Part shown: in pieces, positions 2,044 to 14,581 of the stretch | Layout of the letters: every line of letters begins with the position of its first letter | Numbering within the stretch: position 1 is the first letter of the stretch | Origin: a virus | Virus record (IMG/VR): IMGVR_UViG_3300044856_000229 | Location: 64,001 to 92,827 of that record | Length of the DNA: 28,827 nt | Reading direction: 5' to 3' (one strand) | Translations under genes and position numbers: made by a program | Notes under the pieces: model-generated | Databases searched by the model: none | Told to the model about the DNA's origin: nothing | The model's input: only the letters and a program-made list of their open reading frames with translations

Positions 2044-2133
2044 TTGAGCCTCATGTGCGGGTGAAGCATTCGCCTGCGGCGCACTAATTTTATCACCTTT
2101 TGGAAGGTTTGTCAAGTAGTAAAATTGCACAAA
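2044..2133 (+). ncRNA. candidate short non-coding RNA (about 90-120 nt) from rightward promoter to bidirectional terminator
   Basis: No ORF (ATG TGC GGG TGA). GC-rich imperfect hairpin GUGCGGGUGAAGCAUUCGCCUGCGGCGCAC. Ends at terminator 2134-2165. Partly antisense to the leftward promoter 2087-2115 region. Confidence 0.3.
2087..2115 (-). promoter_or_regulatory. sigmaA-type promoter, leftward (TTGACA-17-TAAAAT), tandem with 1922-1950
   Basis: Minus strand reads TTGACA (2115..2110), spacer, then TAAAAT (2092..2087). No ORF between it and the next promoter. Confidence 0.5.
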
Positions 2134-2165
2134 AAACGCTGAATTAAAATCCAGCGTTTTGTATA
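2134..2165. terminator. bidirectional rho-independent terminator (AACGCTG-9nt-CAGCGTT flanked by A-run and T-run)
   Basis: 7-bp GC-containing stem with U-runs on both strands. Ends gene 2166..2540 (minus) and the rightward sRNA. TTGCACAAAA motif immediately upstream at 2124-2133. Confidence 0.7.
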
Positions 2166-3881: not shown

Positions 3882-3914
3882 TTTTGTTTACCTCTCTCTC
3901 ATTTCTATGTCTTT

Positions 3915-3943
3915 ATTATACCATCAGTGAAGAGGTTTGTCAA
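3915..3943 (-). promoter_or_regulatory. sigmaA-type promoter, leftward (TTGACA-17-TATAAT)
   Basis: Minus strand reads TTGACA (3943..3938), spacer, then TATAAT (3920..3915). Confidence 0.7.
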
Positions 3944-4009
3944 GAACTTTTTTAACTTTTTTATAAGTTTTTTATTTGCTTTCTTGTCTTTCTCTTCCTT
4001 ACAAGTATT

Positions 4010-4038
4010 ATAATACCACAAGTCATTGAGGATTGCAA
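4010..4038 (-). promoter_or_regulatory. candidate leftward extended -10 promoter (TTGCAA-17-TGgTATTAT), tandem upstream of 3915-3943
   Basis: Minus strand reads TTGCAAtcctcaatgacttgTGGTATTAT. Resembles the extended -10 promoter at 9920-9948. Confidence 0.35.
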
Positions 4039-4106
4039 GGATTATTTTGAAAAAAATTGCACAAAATGGGATAAATATTTGCGGAAAAATTTGTGCATTT
4101 TTCCTC

Positions 4107-4136
4107 TTGACAAAGTGTGGCGACCTGTGGTATAAT
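4107..4136 (+). promoter_or_regulatory. rightward extended -10 promoter (TTGACA-18-TGgTATAAT) with upstream GTGCA-N9 element
   Basis: TTGACA at 4107-4112, GGCGACCTGTGG spacer, TATAAT at 4131-4136. Core TTTTCCTCTTGACAAA...GGCGACCTGTGGTATAATT is nearly identical to the copy at 8532-8561. Confidence 0.6.
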
Positions 4137-4142
4137 TTTTCG

Positions 4143-4204
4143 GGCAGCAGTCGAGCCTAACTGTCTGTACGGTCATTAAAAAAAGAAAGCGTTTAAACGC
4201 TTTC
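4143..4204 (+). ncRNA. candidate short non-coding RNA (about 60 nt) ending in bidirectional terminator
   Basis: No ORF. Starts GGGCAGCAG, like the 8568 copy which starts GGGACAGCAGG. Contains AGCCUAACUGUCUG, identical to a 14-nt stretch at 8703-8716 inside leftward small gene 8603..8749. The terminator hairpin is shared with the 3' end of leftward small gene 4193..4315. Confidence 0.3.
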
Positions 4205-4210
4205 TTTTAC
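4177..4210. terminator. bidirectional terminator: perfect 20-bp palindrome GAAAGCGTTTAAACGCTTTC flanked by A7 and T4
   Basis: Exact palindrome at 4185-4204 with U-runs on both strands. Overlaps the stop codon of 4193..4315. Confidence 0.7.
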
Positions 4211-4315
4211 ATCTACCATTTTAATTCTGTGCGGTCTGTCTTTTGCCTCTGCATAGCTTGTGGTTTCCTTTACAATTTTTTTACCTTCCATAATCTGATA
4301 AACAACTTTTCTCAT
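4193..4315 (-). CDS. small protein, 40 aa (MRKVVYQIMEGKKIVKETTSYAEAKDRPHRIKMVDVKESV)
   Basis: Unannotated ORF. RBS AAGAGAGGtattaagaATG. Its stop lies inside the bidirectional terminator. Upstream is a degenerate hairpin element GGGTTAAGCCC and a TATAAT at 4344-4349. Confidence 0.4.
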   Translation of the reverse strand: MRKVVYQIMEGKKIVKETTSYAEAKDRPHRIKMVDVKESV

Positions 4316-4377
4316 TCTTAATACCTCTCTTTTCTATGATTTAATTATACTATAGGGTTAAGCCCTATCTTTATTTT

Positions 4378-4635
4378 TTAATCTTTTTCAATAACTCTAA
4401 AGTCCATGTTTAATGCAGATAAGACTTCTTCTGGATTAAGACTGTGCCCTTCACGAATAATGTTTAAATTTGTTCTGTCAATCAATCGAATCCAATCTTC
4501 TGACTTTTCAACAATAATACAAGGTTCATTAGATAAACAAGGACAAAAACCTTTACAATTAGCTTTTCCCTCACCGTGACGTCCTGCATAACAACCCTCG
4601 AGTTCCGCACATCTATAACATTTGTTTTCTACCAT
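4378..4635 (-). CDS. Cys-rich small protein (7 Cys in first 40 aa; probable metal-binding)
   Basis: 85-aa ORF. Cassette RBS AAAGAGAGGAAAgaaaaATG. Pattern CxxC..C...C..C.C..C. Confidence 0.7.
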   Translation of the reverse strand: MVENKCYRCAELEGCYAGRHGEGKANCKGFCPCLSNEPCIIVEKSEDWIRLIDRTNLNIIREGHSLNPEEVLSALNMDFRVIEKD

Positions 4636-4666
4636 TTTTCTTTCCTCTCTTTCATTTGATACATTA

Positions 4667-4695
4667 AGTATACATTACTTTTGGTTATTTGTCAA
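4667..4695 (-). promoter_or_regulatory. sigmaA-type promoter, leftward (TTGACA-17-TATACT) with conserved 5'UTR cassette
   Basis: Minus strand reads TTGACA (4695..4690), spacer, then TATACT (4672..4667). The 29-bp block CCTCTCTTTCATTTGATACATTAAGTATA at 4644-4672 is identical at 6101-6130 and 8241-8270. Confidence 0.7.
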
Positions 4696-4710
4696 TAAGT
4701 AAAAATGTAT

Positions 4711-4742
4711 AAAAAATGAGCTAAAAATCAGCTTATTTTTTA
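4711..4742. terminator. bidirectional terminator (TGAGCT-7nt-AGCTTA between A6 and T6)
   Basis: Short stem with U-runs on both strands. Follows the stop of gene 4746..5093. Confidence 0.5.
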
Positions 4743-4745
4743 CGT

Positions 4746-5093
4746 CTATTCTTTAATAAAAACTGTTATGTTACTAATCCTCTGAGCGGTACTTGCTACG
4801 TCCTCTTTTATTGAATAACCATTTTCTTCTAATAATTTTGTAAATATTGTAAAATTAAGGAAAACATTTTCGTCTTGAACTCTGTCGTATAAATAAAAAT
4901 AATCTTCTTTGCCCCATCTTTCAAAGAATTTTATTCTAAAGCTTGTTACTAAAGGACGACCCTCTTCTGCGTATCCATAAAGTTTAGAAATTATTCTTTC
5001 ATTTATAAATTTTTCTGTATTAGAAGTAGCTTGTATAAAAGCTTCTATACAAATTTTCCGTTTCATTTCTAAAATTTCTTTTGCTTTCATCAC
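4746..5093 (-). CDS. hypothetical protein
   Basis: 115-aa ORF. RBS AAAGAGAGAGtaaataattgtgATG. No promoter between it and upstream gene 5139..5618, only the 15-bp palindrome. Confidence 0.65.
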   Translation of the reverse strand: MMKAKEILEMKRKICIEAFIQATSNTEKFINERIISKLYGYAEEGRPLVTSFRIKFFERWGKEDYFYLYDRVQDENVFLNFTIFTKLLEENGYSIKEDVASTAQRISNITVFIKE

Positions 5094-5125
5094 AATTATT
5101 TACTCTCTCTTTCTTTATTAATATT

Positions 5126-5158
5126 TCTGGGGGAACTCTCAGAAAAATTTTCTGAGAG
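5126..5158. repeat. perfect 15-bp-arm palindrome GGAACTCTCAGAAAA-a-TTTTCTGAGAGTTCC spanning stop codon of NT5C paralog 1
   Basis: The arms are exact reverse complements. The left arm encodes the last residues (GTLRKF) and the TGA stop lies in the right arm. Possible terminator, RNase III site or operator. Confidence 0.6.
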
Positions 5159-5618
5159 TTCCAATAATGTCGTTTACATCAAAGCTGTTCTCGCCCCACT
5201 CTTCTCTATTACGTTTTTCATCATCAAAGAGCCAACCGTTACAATCAACAACTGTGCTTTTTGGTGTGCCATAGTTTACAATTTTAACCTCATCCCATTC
5301 AACACTAGGAAGATGTTTTTCGAGCCATGCAAGTTTTACGCTTGTTACTGCCGTGTTATAAGCTGTCGAACCATATTTGCTGAGCCAACTTACAATACCG
5401 ATTCTATAACCGTTTGCCTGTAATTTATGTAATACTCTTGCAAATACTGAGAAGTTAAACAGCGGTCTTGCTACTGCATAAGGTGTGGTATCCTCATTTT
5501 CCAGATAGTCCAACCAGTTTTCTACACCATAGAAGTTAGCAAGTGTGCCGTCCATGTCAAAGTAAATAGTTCCTTTTGTTTCCATCATTCCTTTAATTGT
5601 ATTCATCATAATCATCAA
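5139..5618 (-). CDS. HAD-superfamily 5'(3')-deoxyribonucleotidase (NT5C-like), paralog 1
   Basis: HAD motif I FDMDGTLANF. WLEKHLP...VKIVNYGTPKSTVV...GWLFDDE matches the NT5C signature W.EK.FG...IVLT.DK...D.LIDD. About 150 aa. The true start may be the internal ATG at 5588 (METKGTIYFDMDGT), by analogy with paralog 2. Confidence 0.7.
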   Translation of the reverse strand: MMIMMNTIKGMMETKGTIYFDMDGTLANFYGVENWLDYLENEDTTPYAVARPLFNFSVFARVLHKLQANGYRIGIVSWLSKYGSTAYNTAVTSVKLAWLEKHLPSVEWDEVKIVNYGTPKSTVVDCNGWLFDDEKRNREEWGENSFDVNDIIGTLRKFF

Positions 5619-5647
5619 ATCCTTTCTTTTTCCTTTTCTTTAATTAT

Positions 5648-5676
5648 ATTATATACTATCTTTTATAATTTGTCAA
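5648..5676 (-). promoter_or_regulatory. sigmaA-type promoter, leftward (TTGACA-17-TATAAT) with UP-like tract
   Basis: Minus strand reads TTGACA (5676..5671), spacer, then TATAAT (5653..5648). Upstream TTTGTCAACAGTTTTTTTAAATTTTTTTCT is a family A element. Confidence 0.7.
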
Positions 5677-5697
5677 CAGTTTTTTTAAATTTTTTTC

Positions 5698-6093
5698 TCA
5701 GATTTTTGTAATTCCTCTATCTCTTAAATACTCACAAAAGCTTTCAGCGTCCAGTATTTCCGCAAGTCCTTTCATTGAAAGGTTCATTTTGTTATACGAA
5801 CAACGCACTTCAATCGGCTTGAAATTTCTTTCTGTGATAGCTGTTGATAAATAATCTTCAACGTTGCTTAATCGAACAACTGTTTTTCTGAAAATGTTTT
5901 TTGAAAGTTCAGCATTCATAAATAAATCATCTTTTACAAGTTCCACGAGTTCATCAAAAGTTTTAATTGTAAATGTTTGTGTCTTTGCTTCTTCTGGTGT
6001 AAGATATTTTACATGTTTCCAGATACTTGTATCAACAAAATTTTTCCATCCTTCCATTCTGTATTCAAATCTATAATCATAAATCTCTTTCAT
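5698..6093 (-). CDS. hypothetical protein
   Basis: The ATG at 6093 has cassette RBS AAAGAGAGGAAAtaaaaATG. The ORF-track N-terminal extension to 6156 reads through the promoter (MLTSSTL is the reverse complement of the TTGACA hairpin) and is rejected. Confidence 0.7.
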   Translation of the reverse strand: MKEIYDYRFEYRMEGWKNFVDTSIWKHVKYLTPEEAKTQTFTIKTFDELVELVKDDLFMNAELSKNIFRKTVVRLSNVEDYLSTAITERNFKPIEVRCSYNKMNLSMKGLAEILDAESFCEYLRDRGITKI

Positions 6094-6124
6094 TTTTATT
6101 TCCTCTCTTTCATTTGATACATTA

Positions 6125-6153
6125 AGTATAACACATAAGGTTGAACTTGTCAA
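6125..6153 (-). promoter_or_regulatory. sigmaA-type promoter, leftward (TTGACA-17-TATACT), -35 in hairpin GGTTGAActtgTCAAC; -35 overlaps stop codon of 6150..6386
   Basis: Minus strand reads TTGACA (6153..6148), spacer, then TATACT (6130..6125). The upstream gene ends ...KMC* with its TGA stop inside TTGACA. Confidence 0.7.
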
Positions 6154-6386
6154 CACATTTTTAAATTTCTTTTTTTCGCTTCTTCAGTTGTTAATCCATA
6201 ACTTTTCCATGGGTCATATTTTCCGAATAAAATTGTTTCATCAACTGTATCACACATTTTATTATTTACATTATAGTCATAATAAAACCACTTTTTACAA
6301 TCCCATTTAAGCGGACAGTGATAACAAGTTGTTGTAGTTGCTACAGTATCCATGTTTATTGCTAATAATGCTTTTATCTTAATCAT
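6150..6386 (-). CDS. small Cys-containing protein
   Basis: 78-aa ORF. RBS AGGAAGAGGGGtaaacaaaaATG. Only a degenerate promoter upstream (TATAAT at 6415-6420, with the -35 degraded to CCACAA). Confidence 0.6.
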   Translation of the reverse strand: MIKIKALLAINMDTVATTTTCYHCPLKWDCKKWFYYDYNVNNKMCDTVDETILFGKYDPWKSYGLTTEEAKKRNLKMC

Positions 6387-6461
6387 TTTTGTTTACCCCT
6401 CTTCCTTTATCTTGATTATAGTATATCATAGTTGTGGAAAAATGTCTATAGGCAAATTGCA

Positions 6462-6496
6462 CAAAAAAAAGAGCTGAAATTTCAGCTCTTTTTTCT
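6462..6496. terminator. bidirectional terminator: perfect 20-bp palindrome AGAGCTGAAATTTCAGCTCT flanked by A8/T6
   Basis: Palindrome at 6470-6489. A TTGCACAAAA motif is directly adjacent at 6457-6466. Ends gene 6496..6681. Confidence 0.7.
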
Positions 6497-6681
6497 TACT
6501 GCTCCTTTGTTACACTTTTCACAAGCGACCGCAATTCCGCAACTCCAAAAGAGTCCATATACGCGGTCATTGCCTTTTTCAAATCTGCCGTTCTCTTGGC
6601 TCTCAACTGCCCTACCATCCAGTTGTATTCTTCTTCATTTAATTCGTAAGGACAACAACCACTTTCTTTTAATTCATACAT
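6496..6681 (-). CDS. small hypothetical protein (61 aa)
   Basis: RBS AAAGAGAGGAAcaaaaaATG. Tandem promoters at 6716-6744 and 6780-6808. Confidence 0.6.
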   Translation of the reverse strand: MYELKESGCCPYELNEEEYNWMVGQLRAKRTADLKKAMTAYMDSFGVAELRSLVKSVTKEQ

Positions 6682-6715
6682 TTTTTGTTCCTCTCTTTCT
6701 TTATCTTATGTACTT

Positions 6716-6744
6716 ATTATATCAGAGATTCGGGCTTTTGTCAA
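6716..6744 (-). promoter_or_regulatory. sigmaA-type promoter, leftward (TTGACA-17-TATAAT)
   Basis: Minus strand reads TTGACA (6744..6739), spacer, then TATAAT (6721..6716). Confidence 0.65.
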
Positions 6745-6779
6745 CCCTCTTCCTCACTTTTATCTCTTTTGTTAATTAT

Positions 6780-6808
6780 AATATATCACATGGGGTTGAA
6801 TTTGTCAA
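6780..6808 (-). promoter_or_regulatory. sigmaA-type promoter, leftward (TTGACA-17-TATATT) in hairpin GGGGTTGAAtttgTCAACCCC, tandem with 6716-6744
   Basis: Perfect 8-bp-stem hairpin at 6792-6811, followed by a plus-strand T-run. Confidence 0.55.
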
Positions 6809-6824
6809 CCCCAATTTTTATTTT

Positions 6825-7172
6825 TTATCTTTCTTTTAATCCATGTATTATAATTGTATGACCGCAATTATCACAAGTATAATAATATTCATCATCACTA
6901 TTTCTATGATGTACTGCATTTACGAACTTATAAGGCTCATTACATTCTGTGCAATATCCGTTGTTCCATGCTTCATCATCATCTTTGTTTTGTAATGTAA
7001 CCAACCCACCAACACCGCAACCAATAGCAACCGCAAGTATAATTCCTACTATCCATTTGACTATTGGTTTGCTGTCCTCTGCTATAATATTTACAATAAA
7101 TATTGCCATGTAACTGCCGACTGTCAAACTCATAAGTATTGATGTTAAAATAAATTCTGCCGTGTAATTCAT
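6825..7172 (-). CDS. membrane protein (2 TM) with C-terminal zinc-ribbon (CTEC...CDNC)
   Basis: The ATG at 7172 has RBS AAAGAGAGGtaaataaaATG. The ORF-track extension to 7232 is the translation of the promoter hairpin and is rejected. Confidence 0.7.
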   Translation of the reverse strand: MNYTAEFILTSILMSLTVGSYMAIFIVNIIAEDSKPIVKWIVGIILAVAIGCGVGGLVTLQNKDDDEAWNNGYCTECNEPYKFVNAVHHRNSDDEYYYTCDNCGHTIIIHGLKER

Positions 7173-7203
7173 TTTATTTACCTCTCTTTCTTTAACTGTC
7201 TTT

Positions 7204-7232
7204 ATTATAACATAAGAGGTTGAACTTGTCAA
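7204..7232 (-). promoter_or_regulatory. sigmaA-type promoter, leftward (TTGACA-17-TATAAT) in hairpin GAGGTTGAActtgTCAACTCC
   Basis: Minus strand reads TTGACA (7232..7227), spacer, then TATAAT (7209..7204). Confidence 0.7.
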
Positions 7233-7236
7233 CTCC

Positions 7237-7533
7237 TTATCTAAAAAATTCTTTTGCTGTCTCTCTGTATTTTTTTGGAAGGCTTGCGATAAATTTTTCT
7301 TTATCTTCTTCTGACAGTGTTCTTCTTAACTGTCTTGTTGTTACTGAGAATGGATTTAGATGATATTTAAGTATTAATGGAAACGCTCTAATGAATACGA
7401 GTGTTTTAAACGCTTCTATAATTTTGCCAAGGATTTCAACAGGTATCCAAAACCATTTCCATTCATTATAAAAACTTAAATAGCTAAGTGCATACATTAC
7501 AATAACAATTACTACTACTAATGATACTCTCAT
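7237..7533 (-). CDS. small membrane protein
   Basis: 98-aa ORF. RBS AAAGAGAGGtaaatgaaATG. Hydrophobic N-terminus. Confidence 0.7.
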   Translation of the reverse strand: MRVSLVVVIVIVMYALSYLSFYNEWKWFWIPVEILGKIIEAFKTLVFIRAFPLILKYHLNPFSVTTRQLRRTLSEEDKEKFIASLPKKYRETAKEFFR

Positions 7534-7565
7534 TTCATTTACCTCTCTTTCTTTTCTATGTTTTC

Positions 7566-7594
7566 ATTATAACATAAAGGGTTGAACTTGTCAA
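7566..7594 (-). promoter_or_regulatory. sigmaA-type promoter, leftward (TTGACA-17-TATAAT) in perfect hairpin GGGTTGAActtgTCAACCC
   Basis: Minus strand reads TTGACA (7594..7589), spacer, then TATAAT (7571..7566). On the minus strand the hairpin is followed by UUUAUGUUAU and on the plus strand by TTTATTTT, so it can act as a terminator in both directions. Confidence 0.7.
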
Positions 7595-7603
7595 CCCTTT
7601 ATT

Positions 7604-7750
7604 TTAAATTAATTGTAAAAGATAACTTCCATCATTGATAGCAAGAATTCTCACAATTTCATCTTTATTCTGAGAAAGAATCTCACCTGTTGAACAGTCA
7701 ATTAATGCGGTTTCATAACCTTTTTCAATGTAAAGCCCTAAAATCATCAT
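7604..7750 (-). CDS. small protein, 48 aa (MMILGLYIEKGYETALIDCSTGEILSQNKDEIVRILAINDGSYLLQLI)
   Basis: Unannotated ORF. RBS AAGAAAGAGGTGttttttATG. Confidence 0.4.
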   Translation of the reverse strand: MMILGLYIEKGYETALIDCSTGEILSQNKDEIVRILAINDGSYLLQLI

Positions 7751-7766
7751 AAAAAACACCTCTTTC

Positions 7767-7913
7767 TTAAACAAGCTTTAACAAGTTACCGTCTTTATCA
7801 AAACAAAAACCCACAGTTTCATCTGATACAACCTCAAAATAGTCTGAGTCATTTACTGGAATCCATAATCCAGCATTTCTAAAAATTTCTAATAATTTTT
7901 CTTTATCATTCAT
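7767..7913 (-). CDS. small protein, 48 aa (MNDKEKLLEIFRNAGLWIPVNDSDYFEVVSDETVGFCFDKDGNLLKLV)
   Basis: Unannotated ORF. RBS AGAAAGAGAGGtaaagaaaATG. Downstream of promoter 7940-7968. Confidence 0.45.
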   Translation of the reverse strand: MNDKEKLLEIFRNAGLWIPVNDSDYFEVVSDETVGFCFDKDGNLLKLV

Positions 7914-7939
7914 TTTCTTTACCTCTCTTTCTAATACCT

Positions 7940-7968
7940 ATTATACCAGTCCTTGACTTATTTGTCAA
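7940..7968 (-). promoter_or_regulatory. sigmaA-type promoter, leftward (TTGACA-17-TATAAT) in inverted repeat CCTTGACttatttGTCAAGG
   Basis: Minus strand reads TTGACA (7968..7963), spacer, then TATAAT (7945..7940). Confidence 0.7.
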
Positions 7969-8239
7969 GGACTATTTTTTTAATTTCATCATCATAGATG
8001 TTATTGTCAGTGTGCATTGTATCCATGATAAGTTTTACATTATCACCAATTTCAAGGTCTGTGCCGTCCTCAAAATAATACTCCCAGTCATTTCCAGTAG
8101 CATCTGTGAAGGTTGCAAGATTGTTATTCACTTCTACAACCTCTGCGGTTCTGGTGTATGTACTCTCATAAGCTCCCACACCACCAATTGCTGTGATACC
8201 CACCATAATTGCTAATACTGTTTTAATCATCTTCATCAT
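7958..8239 (-). CDS. small secreted/membrane-anchored protein (N-terminal signal-like segment)
   Basis: 93-aa ORF. The cassette RBS abuts the first ATG, so the real start may be the ATG at 8230 (MIKTVLAIMVG). Hydrophobic N-terminus followed by an acidic domain. Confidence 0.65.
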   Translation of the reverse strand: MMKMIKTVLAIMVGITAIGGVGAYESTYTRTAEVVEVNNNLATFTDATGNDWEYYFEDGTDLEIGDNVKLIMDTMHTDNNIYDDEIKKIVLDK

Positions 8240-8264
8240 TTCCTCTCTTTCATTTGATACATTA

Positions 8265-8293
8265 AGTATAACACCAAGTTACTCATTTGTCAA
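8265..8293 (-). promoter_or_regulatory. sigmaA-type promoter, leftward (TTGACA-17-TATACT) with conserved 5'UTR cassette
   Basis: Minus strand reads TTGACA (8293..8288), spacer, then TATACT (8270..8265). The -35 lies inside the 3' coding end of small ORF 8279..8413. Confidence 0.7.
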
Positions 8294-8413
8294 GTCTTTT
8301 TTCTCATATTTTTCTAATTCTTCTTCTATTGCATCATACTCATCGTTAAATAATTCACAAGCATTGATTACACACTGCATGATAAATGTTATCTGTTCTT
8401 TAGTAAATTCCAT
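8279..8413 (-). CDS. small acidic protein, 44 aa (MEFTKEQITFIMQCVINACELFNDEYDAIEEELEKYEKKDLTNE)
   Basis: Unannotated ORF. RBS AAAGGGGAAcaaaaacATG. Promoter at 8445-8473. Confidence 0.4.
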   Translation of the reverse strand: MEFTKEQITFIMQCVINACELFNDEYDAIEEELEKYEKKDLTNE

Positions 8414-8444
8414 GTTTTTGTTCCCCTTTCTTTATCTTGATTAT

Positions 8445-8473
8445 AGTATACTACAAGCCAATAGGTTTGTCAA
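8445..8473 (-). promoter_or_regulatory. sigmaA-type promoter, leftward (TTGACA-17-TATACT)
   Basis: Minus strand reads TTGACA (8473..8468), spacer, then TATACT (8450..8445). Paralogous to the promoter at 1922-1950. Confidence 0.65.
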
Positions 8474-8531
8474 TGTACAAAATAGCCAATTTCGGGAAGC
8501 AAATTATTTAATATTTTGTGCAATTTTCCTC

Positions 8532-8561
8532 TTGACAAACTGCGGCGACCTGTGGTATAAT
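8532..8561 (+). promoter_or_regulatory. rightward extended -10 promoter (TTGACA-18-TGgTATAAT) with upstream GTGCA-N9 element
   Basis: TTGACA at 8532-8537 and TATAAT at 8556-8561. Near-identical core to the copy at 4107-4136. GTGCA ends 9 nt before the -35. Confidence 0.6.
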
Positions 8562-8567
8562 TAGTTG

Positions 8568-8608
8568 GGACAGCAGGCGACCATAGCGGTTGCCCATTTC
8601 TTTTAATA
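8568..8608 (+). ncRNA. candidate short non-coding RNA (about 40 nt) antisense to 3' end of leftward gene 8603..8749
   Basis: Starts GGGACAGCAGG. Hairpin GGCGACCatagcGGTTGCC followed by CATTTCTTTT. Overlaps the stop codon region of the convergent small gene. Confidence 0.3.
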
Positions 8609-8749
8609 CTCTATAATTGTATGCATCAATCGCATCAACTGTTCATTGGTAAACTCTCCCGACTCACAATCTTCACAAAACATAACAGTTAGTGGACTCT
8701 CAAAGCCTAACTGTCTGATTACATTATCCATCATTTCTTTTACTGTCAT
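8603..8749 (-). CDS. small protein, 48 aa (MTVKEMMDNVIRQLGFESPLTVMFCEDCESGEFTNEQLMRLMHTIIEY)
   Basis: Unannotated ORF. RBS AGGAGGtcatgacaATG. An alternative start 2 codons upstream is too close to the RBS. Promoter at 8781-8809. Confidence 0.45.
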   Translation of the reverse strand: MTVKEMMDNVIRQLGFESPLTVMFCEDCESGEFTNEQLMRLMHTIIEY

Positions 8750-8780
8750 TGTCATGACCTCCTTCTCTTAACTTGATTAT

Positions 8781-8809
8781 AGTATACTACAATCAGATTG
8801 ATTTGTCAA
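8781..8809 (-). promoter_or_regulatory. sigmaA-type promoter, leftward (TTGACA-17-TATACT)
   Basis: Minus strand reads TTGACA (8809..8804), spacer, then TATACT (8786..8781). Confidence 0.65.
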
Positions 8810-9045
8810 TAGGAAAATAAAAAATATTTTAAAAATATTTTTGCTTTCCCGCATTAATCCTTTACTACTGGAATGCTGTAGTGTTGCGTTACTTTAACGC
8901 TTTACCACTTTAGTGTAGTGAAGTCTTGCCCTCATTATCTTTGTTATTCTATTAACATTCCTGTTAATTTTTTAACAATCTGCGTCCCACGAACCGCAGA
9001 ACGTAGATAAAGAGAGAACGTTTGTTCTCTCCTCTCTTTATCTCT
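8810..9045. other. 235-bp non-coding block with tandem AAAATATTTT palindromes, multiple short G/C hairpins and inverted repeat TGTTAA-N4-TTAACA
   Basis: No ORF with an RBS. Partly paralogous to 9840-9960 (ACTACTGG(G)AAT(G/C)C..GT and the TGTTAATTTTTTAACAA element). Candidate structured RNA or regulatory region. Confidence 0.35.
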
Positions 9046-9513
9046 TTACACATGATACTGTATTAACTCTTTAAGCACGTCCATCATAACCACAGCATCA
9101 ACACTTGCACCTTGCCACTCTTCTCTATTCCTTGCTTCATCATCGAATAGTATTCCACCACAAGGCACTGCCGCACGTTTATTCTGTCCATACTCTGTTA
9201 CAATAATCTCATTCCAATTAACACTAGGAAGATGCTTCTTTAACCATTTCCTTTTGGCTTCTTCTATTGCTTGCACATAGTCAAGTGTTGCGTCCTTACT
9301 TGCCCATGAGATAACACCTAACTTATAACCTCTTCTCTGTAGTGCATTAATACGCCTTGCAAATAGACTCATAGATACAAGCGGTCTTGCTATCTCATAA
9401 GGCACTATACTACCATGCACCAGATAGTCAAGCCAACCTTCTACACTGTAAAGGTCTGCAATAGTTCCATCTAAATCGAACCACAACCATTTATTATCTA
9501 ACATACTAATCAC
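9046..9513 (-). CDS. HAD-superfamily 5'(3')-deoxyribonucleotidase (NT5C-like), paralog 2
   Basis: FDLDGTIADL (HAD motif I) and WLKKHLP...IIVTEYGQNKRAAV...GILFDDE. About 45% identical to paralog 1 at 5139..5618. The ORF-track start at 9513 is GTG. The ATG at 9504 (MLDNKWLWFDLDGT) is likely the real start. Confidence 0.7.
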   Translation of the reverse strand: MISMLDNKWLWFDLDGTIADLYSVEGWLDYLVHGSIVPYEIARPLVSMSLFARRINALQRRGYKLGVISWASKDATLDYVQAIEEAKRKWLKKHLPSVNWNEIIVTEYGQNKRAAVPCGGILFDDEARNREEWQGASVDAVVMMDVLKELIQYHV

Positions 9514-9545
9514 TCTTTCTTTCTTTTATCTTTATCTTTATATTT

Positions 9546-9574
9546 ATTATAACACCTTTGTGCTTGCTTGTCAA
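9546..9574 (-). promoter_or_regulatory. sigmaA-type promoter, leftward (TTGACA-17-TATAAT)
   Basis: Minus strand reads TTGACA (9574..9569), spacer, then TATAAT (9551..9546). Paralogous to the promoter at 3012-3040. Confidence 0.7.
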
Positions 9575-9635
9575 GACCTTTCTTTGTGTCTTTGTCTTGC
9601 CTCTTGGCTCAAGGGTTAGCCTGAGCTAACCCATC

Positions 9636-9755
9636 CTATGCCAGATAAGTCTCGAGGATAGAGCCACCTACTCTCTTGGCAGTTAGTTCAGCCAAACTTT
9701 TGCTACTTGTCAATAAAACGAATTTTCCCTCTCTATCAATAACCTCATACTTCAT
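9636..9755 (-). CDS. small protein, 39 aa (MKYEVIDREGKFVLLTSSKSLAELTAKRVGGSILETYLA)
   Basis: Unannotated ORF. RBS AAAGAGAGGAAcaaaaacATG. Followed by hairpin GGGTTAGCtcagGCTAACCC. Promoter at 9792-9820. Confidence 0.45.
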   Translation of the reverse strand: MKYEVIDREGKFVLLTSSKSLAELTAKRVGGSILETYLA

Positions 9756-9791
9756 GTTTTTGTTCCTCTCTTTCTCTCTTTCTTTATACAT

Positions 9792-9820
9792 AGTATAGCA
9801 TACAAGTAGCTACTTGTCAA
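9792..9820 (-). promoter_or_regulatory. sigmaA-type promoter, leftward (TTGACA-17-TATACT)
   Basis: Minus strand reads TTGACA (9820..9815), spacer, then TATACT (9797..9792). Confidence 0.65.
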
Positions 9821-9919
9821 GAGGTTTTTATAAATTTTCTTTGTTAATTTTTTAACAAGCGAACTACTGGGAATCGCAGTTTTCGTCACCAACTTACGCT
9901 CCATGAGAGCACCAAATCT

Positions 9920-9948
9920 ATTATACCACAGATGTGCGGTGATGTCAA
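9920..9948 (-). promoter_or_regulatory. leftward extended -10 promoter (TTGACA-17-TGgTATAAT), tandem upstream of 9792-9820
   Basis: Minus strand reads cATTGACAtcaccgcacatctgTGGTATAATag. Resembles the rightward promoters through CTGTGGTATAAT. Confidence 0.55.
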
Positions 9949-9957
9949 TGGGTAACA

Positions 9958-10056
9958 TTGCACAAAGATTGACTACTGATTTTGTGCAATGTGCTGAAAA
10001 TTATTTTTGTGCAAAGTGACGAAATTTGGGAAAAAAATTAAAATATTTTTGTGCAA
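9958..10056. promoter_or_regulatory. array of TTTTGTGCAA motifs (direct copies at 9980-9989, 10005-10014, 10047-10056; inverted copy at 9958-9967) upstream of rightward promoter
   Basis: Exact 10-mer repeats. The last copy is positioned GTGCA-N9-TTGACA, as at the three other rightward promoters. Candidate activator/repressor site or UP-element array. Confidence 0.45.
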
Positions 10057-10064
10057 CTTTTTGC

Positions 10065-10094
10065 TTGACAAATTGTTGTGTCTCGTGTTATAAT
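10065..10094 (+). promoter_or_regulatory. rightward extended -10 promoter (TTGACA-18-TGtTATAAT)
   Basis: TTGACA at 10065-10070 and TATAAT at 10089-10094, with TG at -15/-14. Confidence 0.55.
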
Positions 10095-10100
10095 GGAAAT

Positions 10101-10170
10101 TCGGGCCTGCGCTTGCGTCTACGGCCCGAGGATTTGACGAGAGCGTCATTACTTTTTATGTATTTTTCCC
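10101..10170 (+). ncRNA. candidate short non-coding RNA (GC-rich hairpin GGGCC-15nt-GGCCC, then GACGagaGCGTC + U-tract)
   Basis: No ORF. Structured 5' end followed by a U-rich tail. Lies in the 360-bp non-coding gap 9959-10320. Confidence 0.25.
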
Positions 10171-10320
10171 AGATAAATCTGAAACAAAAGTGAACTTGAG
10201 CCTTGCTATTGGGGGGTATATTTCGTGAAAAAATTTTTTTGATTTTTGAAAATCGTTTTGCTCTGGACAAAACTCTTCTCAAACCCATTTTGAAATTCGA
10301 GTTACGAATAATTTCAGTAT

Positions 10321-10629
10321 TTAATCAAGATTCAAATCTTCTTCTGCAGGGCTTGGATTAGTTGCCCCTTCAATTTGCTTTAAATCCTCAACGTCCTTAT
10401 CCAATTCATCAATATGATCTTTAACCCAATTAGTCAGCTTCAAATATCCAGCATCATTAATTTCAGTAGAGAATCCTCTGAAATCAGTTCGTGCAGGAAA
10501 TCCCGCAATAACATTACCATCATCATCTTGTTCTACAAGTAAACACCAACCAAAAGCATGTAAAAATAAATTAGCATACCACAGTAATCCGCTATCTTTA
10601 AATTCTTTCCAATCTTTAATTTCTATCAT
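10321..10629 (-). CDS. hypothetical acidic protein
   Basis: 102-aa ORF. Strong RBS AAAGGAGataactATG. Preceded by terminator 10648-10693 with no own consensus promoter. Confidence 0.7.
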   Translation of the reverse strand: MIEIKDWKEFKDSGLLWYANLFLHAFGWCLLVEQDDDGNVIAGFPARTDFRGFSTEINDAGYLKLTNWVKDHIDELDKDVEDLKQIEGATNPSPAEEDLNLD

Positions 10630-10647
10630 AGTTATCTCCTTTATAGG

Positions 10648-10693
10648 AAAAGGAGAAACGCATTTTGCATCTCTCCTTTTCGTTTTATTTTTT
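10648..10693. terminator. terminator hairpin AAAAGGAGA-15nt-TCTCCTTTT followed by T-run (plus strand); likely leaky for leftward transcription
   Basis: 9-bp stem with nested GCAttttGC in the loop, then CGTTTTATTTTTT. Confidence 0.5.
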
Positions 10694-10780
10694 ATATATA
10701 GTTAAAACATTTCCTTCGTTTCCGTTATCAGTAATTTCTTAATAAAATTAATACAGCGAGTGGAACAATAATTCCAACAA

Positions 10781-10996
10781 TCATTCTTTATTCTCCTTTA
10801 TTTCAAACCCCAATAATAATTTAAACATTTTTCTTTGTAACCAATTAAATCTTTTATTACAAGGTAAAATAAAAAACTCTTTTCCATCATCATCTACCAA
10901 TACAATTTTATATGGTGCGGGTTTAGGCTGCAATAAATTACAACTGTATGACGAATTCAGTGTCTCCTGCGGATTTACCTTTACTTCTTTTTGCAT
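10781..10996 (-). CDS. hypothetical protein (about 71 aa)
   Basis: The ORF-track start at 11002 is TTG. The ATG at 10996 is the first ATG. Overlaps the 3' end of candidate ORF 10938..11096 in another frame. Its stop overlaps ATGA with the 18-aa hydrophobic micro-ORF 10728..10784 (MIVGIIVPLAVLILLRNY, RBS GGAGAAtaaagaATG). Confidence 0.5.
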   Translation of the reverse strand: MQKEVKVNPQETLNSSYSCNLLQPKPAPYKIVLVDDDGKEFFILPCNKRFNWLQRKMFKLLLGFEIKENKE

Positions 10997-11096
10997 CCTC
11001 AATCTCTTTCTTCATCTGATAATCAAGTTTTGCCATGCGACTTCTCATAATCTGAAACTCTGTTCTTTTTGCTCTTTTACTCTTATTTCTTCCCAT
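10938..11096 (-). CDS. candidate Lys/Arg-rich small protein, 52 aa
   Basis: RBS AAGGAGaatagaaagaATG. A-rich frame in an AT-rich genome, and it overlaps 10781..10996, so it is uncertain. Confidence 0.3.
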   Translation of the reverse strand: MGRNKSKRAKRTEFQIMRSRMAKLDYQMKKEIEDAKRSKGKSAGDTEFVIQL

Positions 11097-11334
11097 TCTT
11101 TCTATTCTCCTTAATCTTTTTTAATTCATTTTCAATTGATTCTAAAAGTCTAATTGCGGATTCATCATCCAAAAATTCACTAACATTTATTGTATTTGGA
11201 ATTACAATAACATGTTTATCAGAAAACACTTCTGAAACATGTTTAAATACTCCATAAACTTCATCAATACTATTTTCACCAAGAGTATAAGTAATAATTA
11301 CATAATCTCTTTTTTCCTCTGTTTTAATTTTCAT
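11083..11334 (-). CDS. hypothetical protein
   Basis: 83-aa ORF. Start overlaps the stop of 11331..11630 (ATGA), so the two are translationally coupled. Confidence 0.65.
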   Translation of the reverse strand: MKIKTEEKRDYVIITYTLGENSIDEVYGVFKHVSEVFSDKHVIVIPNTINVSEFLDDESAIRLLESIENELKKIKENRKNGKK

Positions 11335-11630
11335 CTTATAATTACCGTCCCATGTTTTCCTTCTCTTCTTAGCCTCTCCAAAACTGGATGGCGGGAATTT
11401 TTTTCATTCATAAATACAATAGCAAAATCAAGTTCTTTAATATAATCATTAAATGAGCCAAAGAAATATCTTTTGCCGGAGCCATTATTTTCTGCCCATT
11501 TATCTCCCAAAGAATTGGGAGAACACACTATATTAAATAAATATGTTCCCTTTATTTCAATAAGCTCATTTAATCTTTTATCCAAAAGATCATAATCATC
11601 AAGTGTGCCTCCAATTATTCCTACATTCAT
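11331..11630 (-). CDS. small Rossmann-like protein, possible SLOG/DUF2493-like (Gly-rich N-terminus VGIIGGT)
   Basis: 99-aa ORF. ATGA overlap with the stop of the Thg1-like gene. Glycine-rich loop near the N-terminus. Family assignment is tentative. Confidence 0.6.
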   Translation of the reverse strand: MNVGIIGGTLDDYDLLDKRLNELIEIKGTYLFNIVCSPNSLGDKWAENNGSGKRYFFGSFNDYIKELDFAIVFMNEKNSRHPVLERLRREGKHGTVIIR

Positions 11631-12484
11631 GCGATTGACTCAATAAAAACTAACTTATCAATATAATCTCTATCTGCCCCTTTGAAAATAGGAATTTCAT
11701 AATCTATTTTCCATTTGCGGCGAACAATTATTCTTTCACCAATTTGCTCTCCAAGATAAACATTTGGCTCTTTAATTGTTTCTTTTTCTTCTGTCTTAAT
11801 GCACGCGGTTCCTCGTTTACATGGAATTGTAAAAGTATTCCAATTAATTCCATACTGAACCATTAGCATATCTTGAATATCATTACAAGTTTTATCTTTA
11901 AGTTTAGCATGCGAGAAATGAGCTTGTCCTACCATCTGAATACTATTCCGCATTGCATCAAGCTGCCGCCAATAAATAAGGTTTGTTACTTCTTCTTTTG
12001 GAATATTAAAACATCTTGCGTCAAACATTGCTCCTTTTTCTGCGGCATTTACATATCTTTCAATAAGTCTTTTATTTTCCTCTATAAGAGGATCATAAGT
12101 TGAATTATATTTAATTATATTCTCAGAAAAATATTTATTAAAAGCCACTGTTGCCATAGAAGCTGATATAGAAGCCATTTTCTGGACCTCATAATTAAAC
12201 CAAGCCTCTGAAGTTAACTTTTGGTAATCAGTTAAAATCAAAGTAATTTCATCTGACTGAGTATATCCAAAAATACAACCCTGAATATTTTCACAAAGAT
12301 GCTTCATTGTTCTTTGCATTGTATCCATTAACACAGGGTCAAATGGTTTTTGAAAACCTCGTGTAAAAGTATGAAAAGCTTTTCCATCAATCCTAATAGC
12401 TACTGGCATGCGGCGAAGTAATTGCGTTTTTGCGGGATTTTCATAAAAATCTTTCATTCTTGCGGCAAGTTCACTATTATCCAT
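11627..12484 (-). CDS. Thg1-like protein (tRNA-His guanylyltransferase family, 3'-5' nucleotidyltransferase)
   Basis: Motifs match Thg1 in order: VAIRIDGKAFHTF (Thg1 VVVRLDGRNFHRF), KPFD, YTQSDEITL (Thg1 YGQSDEYSF), QKMASISAS and YWRQLDA (Thg1 SWRQADC). RBS AAGGAAGaaaaATG. Confidence 0.8.
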   Translation of the reverse strand: MDNSELAARMKDFYENPAKTQLLRRMPVAIRIDGKAFHTFTRGFQKPFDPVLMDTMQRTMKHLCENIQGCIFGYTQSDEITLILTDYQKLTSEAWFNYEVQKMASISASMATVAFNKYFSENIIKYNSTYDPLIEENKRLIERYVNAAEKGAMFDARCFNIPKEEVTNLIYWRQLDAMRNSIQMVGQAHFSHAKLKDKTCNDIQDMLMVQYGINWNTFTIPCKRGTACIKTEEKETIKEPNVYLGEQIGERIIVRRKWKIDYEIPIFKGADRDYIDKLVFIESIA

Positions 12485-12518
12485 TTTTCTTCCTTTTTTT
12501 ATTTATTTTATATATATA

Positions 12519-12848
12519 TTATAATTTAATTTTTAAATTTTGTCCATTCTGATCTTTTATTGAGATTTCTGTGCGGTTTTCAGTAAGATTTGTTTCTTTT
12601 AAGAACCAATGCCATACATGAGGTTCTTCAATTGTGGTTCCAATATATTGGGTATTTTCTAACACTTTTTCGGGAATCGGCTGTCCTGTTCCAATAGGAT
12701 TCACAAAGAAACTTCTAATAGGAGCTGCAGTATCAGTTAAAGCCCAAAGATAAGTGCGGCCATTCATTTCTTTTACATCAAGAAATTTAATAAGCGGTAA
12801 TTCAAGTACTCCAATATCATTTAAACAATATTTAAGAATTCTTTTCAT
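12519..12848 (-). CDS. hypothetical protein (109 aa)
   Basis: RBS AGAGGAtaaacttaATG. Overlaps the 3' end of the AbrB-like gene by 17 nt. Confidence 0.65.
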   Translation of the reverse strand: MKRILKYCLNDIGVLELPLIKFLDVKEMNGRTYLWALTDTAAPIRSFFVNPIGTGQPIPEKVLENTQYIGTTIEEPHVWHWFLKETNLTENRTEISIKDQNGQNLKIKL

Positions 12849-13098
12849 TAAGTTTATCCTCTAATTTTTCTGGAATTTCTGCGCCAATTTCTTCAAGAAT
12901 TGATTTTGCGGCTAAGAATTTTGGGTCTACTCCATCGGCAATAGATAAAGCAATATACATTTTACCATCTAAATCAAATGTAAAAAATTCAAGCTCTTCA
13001 TTATCTCGCATAAACATTCTATCTCTTAATCCTTTTGGAAGAGTAATTCTTCCCAATGAATCTAATCTTCTTCTTGCGTTTTCTGGTCTTAATATCAT
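12832..13098 (-). CDS. AbrB/SpoVT/MazE-fold DNA-binding protein
   Basis: N-terminal LDSLGRITLPKGLRDRMFM matches the swapped-hairpin AbrB-N motif (VDELGRVVIPIELRRTLGI). 88 aa. RBS AAGGAGataaaataATG. Confidence 0.7.
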   Translation of the reverse strand: MILRPENARRRLDSLGRITLPKGLRDRMFMRDNEELEFFTFDLDGKMYIALSIADGVDPKFLAAKSILEEIGAEIPEKLEDKLNEKNS

Positions 13099-13110
13099 TA
13101 TTTTATCTCC

Positions 13111-13347
13111 TTAATTAAATTTAATATTATTATCATCATCGCTACCATCCCAATTACTACCCATTAAAATATCTAATATCCATGTAGCAATATTAGAGAT
13201 GAAAAATGCGGGTGCTGTTATTAAAAATATTATGAGTACAATTAACATTTCTACCCAGCCTATTTGATACAGCGAATCCGCAGATTGTATAGCCAAAGAT
13301 AAAAACATAAGTAACCATAAAATATAAATAACTATTATTAAAGTCAT
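13111..13347 (-). CDS. small membrane protein (2 TM)
   Basis: 78-aa ORF. RBS AAAGAGGAtacaaatATG. First gene after promoter 13386-13414. Confidence 0.65.
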   Translation of the reverse strand: MTLIIVIYILWLLMFLSLAIQSADSLYQIGWVEMLIVLIIFLITAPAFFISNIATWILDILMGSNWDGSDDDNNIKFN

Positions 13348-13385
13348 ATTTGTATCCTCTTTATTTTTACCTTTAATTTACTAAT

Positions 13386-13414
13386 ATAATATCAAAAAAT
13401 TTTAATGTTGTCAA
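13386..13414 (-). promoter_or_regulatory. sigmaA-type promoter, leftward (TTGACA-17-TATTAT), divergent partner of 13420-13448
   Basis: Minus strand reads TTGACA (13414..13409). The two -35 boxes are back-to-back: TTGTCAAagaatTTGACT. Confidence 0.6.
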
Positions 13415-13419
13415 AGAAT

Positions 13420-13448
13420 TTGACTTTGTCCAAGATTTGCGATATAAT
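13420..13448 (+). promoter_or_regulatory. sigmaA-type promoter, rightward (TTGACT-17-TATAAT) for the morphogenesis arm
   Basis: TTGACT at 13420-13425, a 17-nt spacer, then TATAAT at 13443-13448. This is 24 nt upstream of the RBS GGAGGtaaactATG of gene 13472. Confidence 0.65.
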
Positions 13449-13471
13449 GTTTTTAATACTGGAGGTAAACT

Positions 13472-14581
13472 ATGATTAAATTAGACTATACTATACAAAC
13501 TCCAGAAGAAAGAAACGAACTAGTGAAAAAAATTTTAGAAGAAACTCCTGACCCTAGTGAGAGATATTTAGAAATTTTGGCTGACTACCTCGTTCTTTGT
13601 ATGGAGAAACAAGAGAAGAAGCAGAAACAAATTTTAACAGAAAATCGAATGACAACTGTTAATAAGAGAGAAACTTCTTATGAAGGTCTTGTTTCCCAAT
13701 TAGAAAATGGCGAAGATGGTATCTATAACCTAATAAATGAAAGTAAAACAACAATATTTCAACCAAAAGTGACAATAACAAAAAAAGATTTAGAAGAAAT
13801 ACCTTATTTAAGACAATTACGTGATGCTATCAATAGTTGGGAAATAAAACTTAAAAAAGCGCAAGGGCGCGATGCGTATATAATTAAAAAAGCATTGATT
13901 GAAATGCGTAAAGACCAATATGTAATAAAAAATGCTTACCGCAAGCCTATTATCTTTAATAAAATTAGTCGTTCTAATTTTGCGTCTAGATTGGTTGAAG
14001 ATTTTATATTAGATGAAAATAATTATATTGTTCCTAGTGGGGTTTCTTTATGTAGTCCTACAGTTTGTTCATTAATTCTTTGTAATTATTCGCAACTTAA
14101 AGAAGAGAGCTGGGGAAAATTTGAAGGTGATTTATGGTACCTTATGGAATCATTTGATAAAATATCTACAGACGCTTTAAAAGAATACCCATTATATGAA
14201 GAAATAGTAAAATGTAAAATAGATGGACTACAAAATATAGAAATACAGAAAATATTAAAAGAAAAGTATGATACAACTCATAGCTTAGAATATATTTCTA
14301 GCTTATGGAGGAAAAAGATTCCAAATCTTATTGCCTCAAAAGCAGAGGACGTAGAATTAAGTTGGTATTTTTTAAATACTGAAAAAGGTAAATATAAAAG
14401 ATGCAGTCGATGCGGGAAAATTAAACTTGCTCATAATAAATATTTTAGTAAAAATAAAACTAGCAAGGATGGTTGGTATTCCATTTGTAAAGAATGTAGA
14501 AATAAAAAAATAAGGACAAAAAGAAATAGACTTTCTTTATCCTTTTATAAAGGAGGTATAATTTATGGCAACAAATACTGA
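13472..14581 (+). CDS. hypothetical protein with C-terminal zinc ribbon (CSRC-x20-CKEC)
   Basis: 369-aa ORF. Basic tail. First gene of the rightward arm. Confidence 0.75.
   Translation: MIKLDYTIQTPEERNELVKKILEETPDPSERYLEILADYLVLCMEKQEKKQKQILTENRMTTVNKRETSYEGLVSQLENGEDGIYNLINESKTTIFQPKVTITKKDLEEIPYLRQLRDAINSWEIKLKKAQGRDAYIIKKALIEMRKDQYVIKNAYRKPIIFNKISRSNFASRLVEDFILDENNYIVPSGVSLCSPTVCSLILCNYSQLKEESWGKFEGDLWYLMESFDKISTDALKEYPLYEEIVKCKIDGLQNIEIQKILKEKYDTTHSLEYISSLWRKKIPNLIASKAEDVELSWYFLNTEKGKYKRCSRCGKIKLAHNKYFSKNKTSKDGWYSICKECRNKKIRTKRNRLSLSFYKGGIIYGNKY

Follow-up and report, generated by a model that had tools for sequence, protein, structure and literature searches.

Strong sigma-70 and sigma-A promoters may have a UP element or A-tracts upstream of their −35 hexamers, as at Escherichia coli rrnB P1 or in the phased A-tracts near −43 and −54 of Bacillus subtilis promoters. 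Short sites of more specific sequence are also known: the B. subtilis “−44 element” (AGCA) is read by a complex of Spx and the C-terminal domain of the RNA polymerase alpha subunit (alpha-CTD), and the activity of MarA/SoxS/Rob marboxes and CRP class I sites depends on helical face (in steps of about 10–11 bp) and, for the marbox, on the orientation of its asymmetric single site as well. The virulent Firmicute phage phi29 ties some of its early promoters to a host regulator through Spo0A boxes near −35. Here we analyze a ten-base motif, TTTTGTGCAA, in a 28,827-nucleotide stretch of viral DNA (positions 64,001–92,827 of IMG/VR virus record IMGVR_UViG_3300044856_000229, called “the window” below and numbered from its first base). 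The motif lies at a fixed distance, orientation and helical phase upstream of a subset of early promoters, here as in hundreds of related phages of gut and rumen, and the same arrangement is present at housekeeping genes of gut and rumen Clostridia. Judging from these sequences, it is probably a host-type upstream promoter element that acts through the host RNA polymerase and has been copied by the phage.

The motif resembles the UP element in its location at about −40 to −60, its presence at tRNA-type and other strong promoters, its displacement by whole helical turns only and, in this phage, its positional exchange with A-tracts; it differs in having an invariant G-T-G-C-A core and a strict orientation and in being present at only about 6–8% of strong promoters, and a contact with alpha-CTD is putative here. 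Like the Spx −44 element it is a short asymmetric GC-containing site just upstream of the −35, with its GCA at about −47 to −45, but it has another sequence, is offset by about 2 nucleotides, and the host genes that follow it are housekeeping genes rather than a thiol-stress regulon. Its reverse complement contains GCAC, as does marbox element RE1, but it is not accompanied by a second marbox element or a CRP dyad, and the bacteria belong to another phylum. Finally, phi29-type Spo0A boxes require a TGTCGAA core that the motif does not have.

The motif and its promoters in the window

Seven exact copies of the motif are present in the 28.8-kb window, where dinucleotide shuffles predict 0.24 (maximum of 2 in 100 shuffles), which bears out an earlier reading of this DNA, made from the sequence only, that the motif is not random. 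When one mismatch is allowed there are 10 copies compared with 6.5 expected and the enrichment is gone, so the signal is the exact core. All copies (Table 1) lie within the early half of the window (1–13.4 kb) and none in the late half. The sequence-only reading had the copy at 6457–6466 right, was 1–2 nucleotides off for three others (given as 4059–4068, 8513–8522 and 2124–2133), and its copy at 4090–4097 is in fact a variant, TTTGTGCAT, that occupies 4090–4098.

Every proximal copy, read in the direction of the motif, is followed by 8–9 nucleotides (the “gap” below), a −35 hexamer and a good −10; in one case (4057–4066) the gap is 18 nucleotides. The proximal copies serve three leftward promoters, P2115, P6448 and P9948, and four rightward promoters, P2008, P4107, P8532 and P10065 (each named by the first base of its −35), and at both kinds of sigma-A-type promoter the proximal motif is always directed toward its −35. 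It had been proposed that the motif is a trait of rightward promoters and of bidirectional terminators, and that a GTGCA or GTATA core ends 9 bp before the −35 of the former. The distance is correct for all four rightward promoters, but the three leftward promoters obey the same rule (9–10 bp), and the restriction to rightward promoters or terminators does not hold. Two copies do abut terminators as had been stated, 2125–2134 at hairpin 2137–2158 and 6457–6466 at hairpin 6467–6490; on the minus strand the T-run of the motif extends the U-tracts of these hairpins, and the adjacency arises because it also serves the leftward terminator before it as U-tract, giving a compact layout of terminator, element and promoter.

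The densest group of copies lies at 9958–10056, between the divergent promoters P9948 and P10065, which are 116 bp apart. Three direct copies (at 9980, 10005 and 10047) were correctly noted there; the inverted copy at 9958 matches in only nine of ten positions. The two outer copies are the proximal elements of the two promoters. The two inner copies can be understood as distal sites of P9948 and P10065 in phase with them, and the positions they occupy (forward at gap 50 and reverse at gap 31) recur in the phage family. All four cores are invariant in two relatives that are 97–98% identical (L001 and L002), and the spacers between them carry substitutions; in L002 a 10-bp deletion shifts the copy at 10005–10014 by a full turn and keeps its helical phase. 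At 94% overall identity, this footprint is only modest evidence.

Table 1. Copies of the motif, their promoters and predicted RNAs in the window, with three RNA examples from related loci
Feature	Position	Strand	Details
Variant TTTTGTATAA	1990..1999	+	Gap 8, upstream of P2008(+) (TTGACA-18-TATAAT)
Exact copy	2125..2134	−	Directly after terminator hairpin 2137–2158; gap 9 to P2115(−), TTGACA-17-TAAAAT
Exact copy	4057..4066	−	One helical turn further out: gap 18 to TTGCAA (4038–4033)-17-TGnTATTAT (−10 at 4015–4010)
Variant TTTGTGCAT	4090..4098	+	Gap 8, upstream of P4107(+)
P4107 and predicted RNA	4107..4212	+	TTGACA-18-TATAAT, near-identical to P8532; RNA of ~70 nucleotides ends in terminator 4181–4208
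Exact copy	6457..6466	−	Directly after terminator hairpin 6467–6490; gap 8 to TAGACA (6448–6443)-17-TATACT, promoter of gene 6150–6386(−)
Exact copy	8514..8523	+	Gap 8, upstream of P8532(+)
P8532 and predicted RNA	8532..8604	+	TTGACA-18-TATAAT; RNA of ~38 nucleotides, 8567–8604, hairpin plus CAUUUCUUUU
P9948	9920..9948	−	TTGACA (9948–9943), 17-nucleotide spacer, TGnTATAAT (−10 at 9925–9920)
Copy CTTTGTGCAA, 9/10 match	9958..9967	−	Proximal element of P9948, gap 9
Exact copy, distal, without a −35 of its own	9980..9989	+	Reverse at gap 31 for P9948 (family-wide peak); forward at gap 75 for P10065
Exact copy, distal	10005..10014	+	Forward at gap 50 for P10065, four helical turns past the proximal copy; TGACGAA follows
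Exact copy	10047..10056	+	Proximal element of P10065, gap 8
P10065	10065..10094	+	TTGACA, 18-nucleotide spacer, TATAAT with TG extension
Predicted short non-coding RNA from P10065	10101..10160	+	GC hairpin 10102–10129, then terminator-like hairpin 10135–10148 with U-run; GGAAAUUC-hairpin RNA family
Hairpin RNA example, L022	~4390–4440
Hairpin RNA example, L061	~2990–3040
Hairpin RNA example, L072	~1750–1800

Promoter classes in related phages

A protein-based search with the sigma-like protein encoded in the window gave 476 relatives in IMG/VR, and 80 loci were fetched from these by a selection that was blind to the motif. Of the 80 loci, 46 have the exact 10-mer, each time within the early half, and the conservation in related genomes for which a check had been suggested is thus observed. 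The window and the 80 loci yielded 858 unique strong promoters, among which 70 have GTGCA 14–15 nucleotides before the −35 (starting at −14 in 52 and at −15 in 17, counted from the first T of the −35); GTGCA is nearly absent at neighbouring offsets. The remaining strong promoters have A-tracts at the position of the motif, and we refer to these as class A and to motif-bearing promoters as class B. The two classes differ in what they precede: a ribosome-binding site and an open reading frame follow 41% of class B but 75% of class A promoters, and the initial transcribed region has a GC content of 0.49 in class B and 0.33 in class A, with mean folding energies of −9.4 and −3.3 kcal/mol, respectively. 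Variants at the motif position were counted in 862 promoters (TTGTGCA 67, TTGTGTA 16, TTGTTCA 10, TTGTATA 8 and TTGTACA 7), and they keep the first-position G. The G, T, G, C and A of the core, which are invariant by construction of the set, are its information-rich part, between flanks rich in T and A. At most promoters there is just one asymmetric copy.

A more distant phage, phAss-1 (OQ749652), whose large terminase subunit (TerL) is 44% identical, has six copies of TTTGTGCA in its 7.1-kb right-end locus (L081, 128833–135976; 49% GC), several of them at an 8–9-nucleotide gap to TTGAC. Its predicted host belongs to the Clostridia/Eubacteriales (PMC10607447). No copy was found in a 34-kb region of Enterococcus phage VRE9_4 that includes early genes. 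The presence of the motif in phAss-1 in spite of the 44% TerL identity suggests that the element follows host lineage rather than phage relatedness. phAss-1 is a gut phage that is reported to use genetic code 15, and its terminal region shares the motif-promoter architecture.

Orientation and helical phasing

IMG/VR was also scanned for the pattern TTTGTGCAA, a gap of defined length, and TTGACA-N17/18-TATAAT. With related sequences counted in every case, gaps of 8–9 gave at least 117 stretches with the motif forward and 5 with the motif flipped, and other forward gaps gave 3 (13–14), at least 120 (18–19), 26 (23–24) and 86 (29–30). Loci that had not been chosen for the motif have forward copies at gaps of 8 (21 copies), 9 (4), 18 (4), 19 (1), 29 (2), 40 (2), 44 (2) and 50 (2), and none at gaps of 10–17, 20–28 or 30–39. 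The repeat is about 10.5 bp, and by these occurrence counts the element is tolerated on a single helical face and, when proximal, in a single direction. As the sequence-only reading envisaged, the motif is rigidly phased to the −35 and very likely a site of protein contact.

Occurrence in Clostridia genomes

The 21-base composite of motif and promoter was found in at least 120 stretches when one genome per species (596 Gb) was scanned, for which we estimate a chance expectation of about 1–20. Among the matches listed, about 67 of 80 titles are Clostridia/Bacillota, and the taxa include Oscillospiraceae, Lachnospiraceae, Acutalibacteraceae, Ruminococcus, Oscillibacter and Christensenella. A T-box leader lies immediately after the composite promoter in six loci and tRNA genes in three, and the first open reading frames downstream encode acyl carrier protein (acpP), adenylosuccinate synthetase (purA), YlxM, NrdR, type III glutamine synthetase (glnA), an ABC-transporter substrate-binding protein, Veg, an S1-domain protein, NrdD and, in the isolate Ruminococcus albus 8, a MatE transporter. 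These genes are functionally diverse growth and housekeeping genes, and not the coherent regulon that would be expected of a transcription-factor operator. Some of the genome loci have 55–67% GC, a composition at which chance is very unlikely to produce a composite so rich in A/T. Other perfect promoters in the genome loci, which were not selected for the motif, have GTGCA at −14/−15 in 3 of 51 cases, and all other offsets together gave 4 matches.

Metagenome-assembled genome (MAG) contigs labelled Treponema, Aphodosoma, Muribaculaceae, Methanobrevibacter, Acinetobacter and Paludibacteraceae (L102, L115, L121, L125, L151 and L155) carry multiple copies of the motif and several of them also bear hairpin RNA modules (below); mis-binning of phage contigs into unrelated MAGs is the most likely explanation. 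Among the listed titles outside Clostridia/Bacillota, several are clearly phage contigs that were mis-binned in this way.

What may read the element

In the mechanism that we propose, TTTGTGCA(A/T) would be an upstream element of sigma-A-type promoters of gut and rumen Clostridia, and the phage would have taken it over for some of its early promoters, class B. Placed at about −54 to −45 (8–9 nucleotides before the −35), or one, two or more helical turns upstream on the same DNA face, it would supply an extra contact for the host RNA polymerase, made either by alpha-CTD or by a host protein that docks on the polymerase. We infer that these promoters fire and that the element stimulates them: the contact would raise recruitment, or make class B promoters responsive to the state of the host. 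Class A promoters have an A-tract in place of the element, and class B promoters would preferentially drive short GC-hairpin RNAs rather than protein-coding genes. The upkeep of the motif in uninfected bacteria, its form as a single asymmetric site and its lock to the −35 in distance, face and direction argue for a contact with the transcription machinery and not for the operator of a phage repressor. The sequence-only reading had offered a host factor as one option and held that a UP element alone would not suffice. The evidence favours the former, and the latter is right in that the canonical A/T-rich UP element does not describe a G-T-G-C-A core, but UP-like action coupled to RNA polymerase is likelier than was allowed, given the strict orientation and the 10.5-bp phasing.

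Several observations weigh against a polymerase-coupled host element. The counts from the collection scans, some of them lower bounds, include related, non-independent sequences, and many of the genome matches come from MAGs with mis-binned phage contigs. About half of the copies in phage early regions are not beside a recognisable −35. In the phage as in the host, the element is present at only about 6–8% of strong promoters, so it is optional in the way that a regulon site is. Reverse-oriented copies peak at gaps of 31–32, 41–42 and 51–52, and an adjacent divergent promoter explains only a quarter of them; peaks that mostly have no divergent partner suit a multimeric DNA-binding protein. Lastly, known alpha-CTD sites are A/T-rich and none resembles the invariant G/C core; this counts against direct reading by alpha in particular.

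Which component of the host machinery might make the contact is a separate matter. Direct contact by alpha-CTD is argued for by position, phasing, exchange with A-tracts and presence at tRNA and veg promoters. In 69 of the 70 class B promoters the motif lies at 14–15 nucleotides, within the −40 to −60 region directly upstream of the −35 where UP elements are found, and the counts place it on one face, but its sequence is not the A/T-rich UP consensus; with the core as it is, we regard direct contact as doubtful. The 6–8% share of promoters, the distal and reverse copies and the clustering argue instead for a host protein, and a specific enriched sequence is what a transcription-factor site would present; contact through a host factor docked on RNA polymerase is a possibility that we would entertain with caution. 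In its widest form the proposal is of a new promoter element particular to gut and rumen Clostridia (Oscillospirales, Lachnospirales and relatives), orientation-specific, face-locked and read by RNA polymerase or by a polymerase-bound host factor, that a large family of uncultivated 100–200-kb phages has adopted and that heads a second promoter class largely for a new family of short GC-hairpin RNAs, often from convergent promoter pairs; we put this forward tentatively. In the searchable literature, which leaves out most subscription-journal papers, we found no prior description of the element, the motif string matched only primers and unrelated items, and a search by concept gave microbiome papers; the phAss-1 paper and a Clostridioides difficile start-site paper do not mention such an element.

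The alternative that survives best is that the motif is the operator of a phage-encoded regulator, either the SpoVT/AbrB-like protein of gene 12832–13098, which the sequence-only reading considered a candidate binder, or another early protein, that switches class B promoters off or on after infection and perhaps shuts off host promoters. The protein does have a SpoVT/AbrB-type N-terminal domain (PDB SpoVT, E = 1.3e-4; Pfam MazE_antitoxin, 18.1 bits; PHROG antitoxin), its gene is kept beside the sigma-like gene in 42 of 83 loci, and the clustered and reverse-oriented copies would suit a multimeric binder. But the Pfam score does not reach the 24.7-bit cut-off of its family, the promoter of the gene itself (P13414) is without the motif, and phAss-1 has the motif while no homolog of the protein was found in the 37 kb fetched; AbrB, moreover, is not known to bind in this manner, at one asymmetric 9-bp site of fixed position. 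The motif occurs in nearly all loci, which leaves no contrast for presence of the AbrB-like gene. Above all, the same composite of motif, spacing and promoter stands before chromosomal housekeeping genes and tRNA/T-box loci of uninfected Clostridia, so it exists and is maintained without the phage protein, which is thus a poor candidate for the primary binder. A Pfam search of 20 early open reading frames for a cognate factor gave no clear transcription factor, only this weak match and a weak winged-helix signal in 2587–2967. We consider a phage operator unlikely; the SpoVT/AbrB-like protein could nevertheless be a secondary binder of the motif, perhaps one that silences promoters of class B and of the host.

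The motif might instead be the site of a host developmental or global transcription factor through which the phage senses the state of its host, as with the Spo0A boxes at phi29 early promoters. TTTGTGCAA differs from an extended 0A box, TTTGTCGAA, solely by inversion of the central CG, distal copies are followed by TGACGAA, which is a TGNCGAA box, and a place beside the −35 is generally typical of Spo0A-type activators. On the other hand, canonical TGTCGA or TTGTCGA occurs at the motif position in none of 862 promoters, TGNCGAA is not enriched (6 in the window compared with about 9 expected by our estimate), and the motif-bearing host genes are growth and housekeeping genes, not a sporulation regulon; this makes such a site very unlikely. 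Sites and promoters of other kinds (DnaA box, CRP/FNR, Rex, cre, WalR, LacI/GntR-type operators, sigma-54 and sporulation-sigma promoters) seem to fit poorly.

Less probable still is that the motif has no function and is simply carried along in duplicated promoter cassettes. P4107 and P8532 are indeed near-identical modules, and the regions of P1950/P2008 and P8473/P8532 have the look of paralogs, but the motif is kept amid wholly different flanks, spacers and downstream sequences, in phages at 44–73% protein identity and at host genes in genomes of 28–67% GC, and the orientation and phasing controls differ more than 20-fold. That 9958–10056 is a replication origin with the copies as iterons, an idea prompted by three direct copies and one inverted copy within 100 bp beside the A/T-rich 10020–10046, is hardly credible, since the motif occurs singly at a fixed promoter distance throughout the early region and in host genes, the copies are irregularly spaced (22, 25 and 42 bp), each of them is accounted for by where it stands with respect to P9948 or P10065, cumulative GC skew turns at about 13–14 kb, where the direction of transcription switches, with no change at 10 kb, and Pfam searches of the early open reading frames recognised no initiator gene nearby.

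Predicted short hairpin RNAs from class B promoters

The four rightward promoters of the window oppose the direction of the genes and lead into short structured stretches with terminator-like hairpins at their ends (10101–10160, 8567–8604 and 4143–4212). The fourth, P2008, faces P2115; the two are convergent and overlap across a shared hairpin (2055–2084), with a predicted RNA at 2044–2100(+) and an antisense RNA from P2115(−). Across all loci there are 171 unique GC hairpins driven by class B promoters; their shared leader is similar to GGAAAUUUC and their tail to CCAAAAA. The predicted RNAs have an 8–10-bp stem of variable sequence, and convergent promoter pairs often flank them. In an alignment of 38 sequences, an 8-bp helix that was given by hand is 82% paired, compared with 30–53% in slid controls, with 51 compensatory cells, and none of 500 shuffles reached this value; MAFFT plus RNAalifold recovered only 3 pairs owing to a 1-nucleotide misalignment. 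A search of the hairpin RNAs against Rfam gave nothing at the gathering threshold and only chance-level matches at E values up to 10. Mimicry of type I-C CRISPR repeats was considered and rejected, the GC stem being the only likeness. An identical 14-mer, AGCCTAACTGTCTG, is present at 4156–4169, in the predicted P4107 RNA, and at 8704–8717, antisense and inside open reading frame 8603–8755(−); it may mark a trans-antisense target or be left over from a duplication, and the repeat alone is not significant.

The phage and its relatives

The window is a piece of a large phage, whose terminase is 49% identical to those of 134–142-kb Enterococcus phages and of Geobacillus E3. Small leftward genes occupy 1–13347, and rightward genes, among them those for the sigma-like protein, terminase and portal, follow from 13472 onward. 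About 30 near-perfect sigma-A-type promoters (TTGACA-17-TGnTATAAT), about one per small gene, are present in 1–13450, most of them with phased A-tracts upstream; this early-promoter array is unusually dense and is kept in relatives. The −35 of many leftward gene promoters lies within a hairpin (7948–7973, 6791–6813, 7574–7602, 3027–3043 and 690–713) that reads on the plus strand as an intrinsic terminator with a T-run, so leftward promoters may also stop rightward (antisense) transcription.

The first rightward gene, 13472–14581(+), encodes the sigma-factor-like protein (PHROG 5767), the C-terminal part of which resembles HNH/endonuclease VII or a zinc ribbon, and the late cluster of the Enterococcus phages opens with the same gene. 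The early region also encodes a Thg1-like tRNA-His guanylyltransferase and two paralogous NT5C/HAD-type 5'-nucleotidase-like proteins (11627–12484(−), 5139–5618(−) and 9046–9513(−)), the latter kind kept in 49 loci and in phAss-1. A search for tRNAs found none. The 476 IMG/VR relatives are uncultivated phage contigs, many of 100–200 kb with several above 190 kb, from samples that appear to be of gut or rumen origin. Among cultured phages, 9000–11500 had no megablast match, and distant blastn of 9900–10200 matched solely a 45-nucleotide promoter stretch in phAss-1.

Implications

If the proposed reading is true, a sequence-specific, GC-containing upstream element would join the known parts of bacterial promoters, in a group of Clostridia that is dominant in gut and rumen microbiomes and has almost no promoter biochemistry. 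It would give a design rule for strong promoters in bacteria that are hard to engineer (TTTGTGCAA, 8 nucleotides, TTGACA, 17 nucleotides, TGnTATAAT) and a sequence signature that ties uncultivated phages to Clostridia hosts. For the phages themselves, it would mean a family with two classes of early promoter, one of which mainly makes small structured RNAs.

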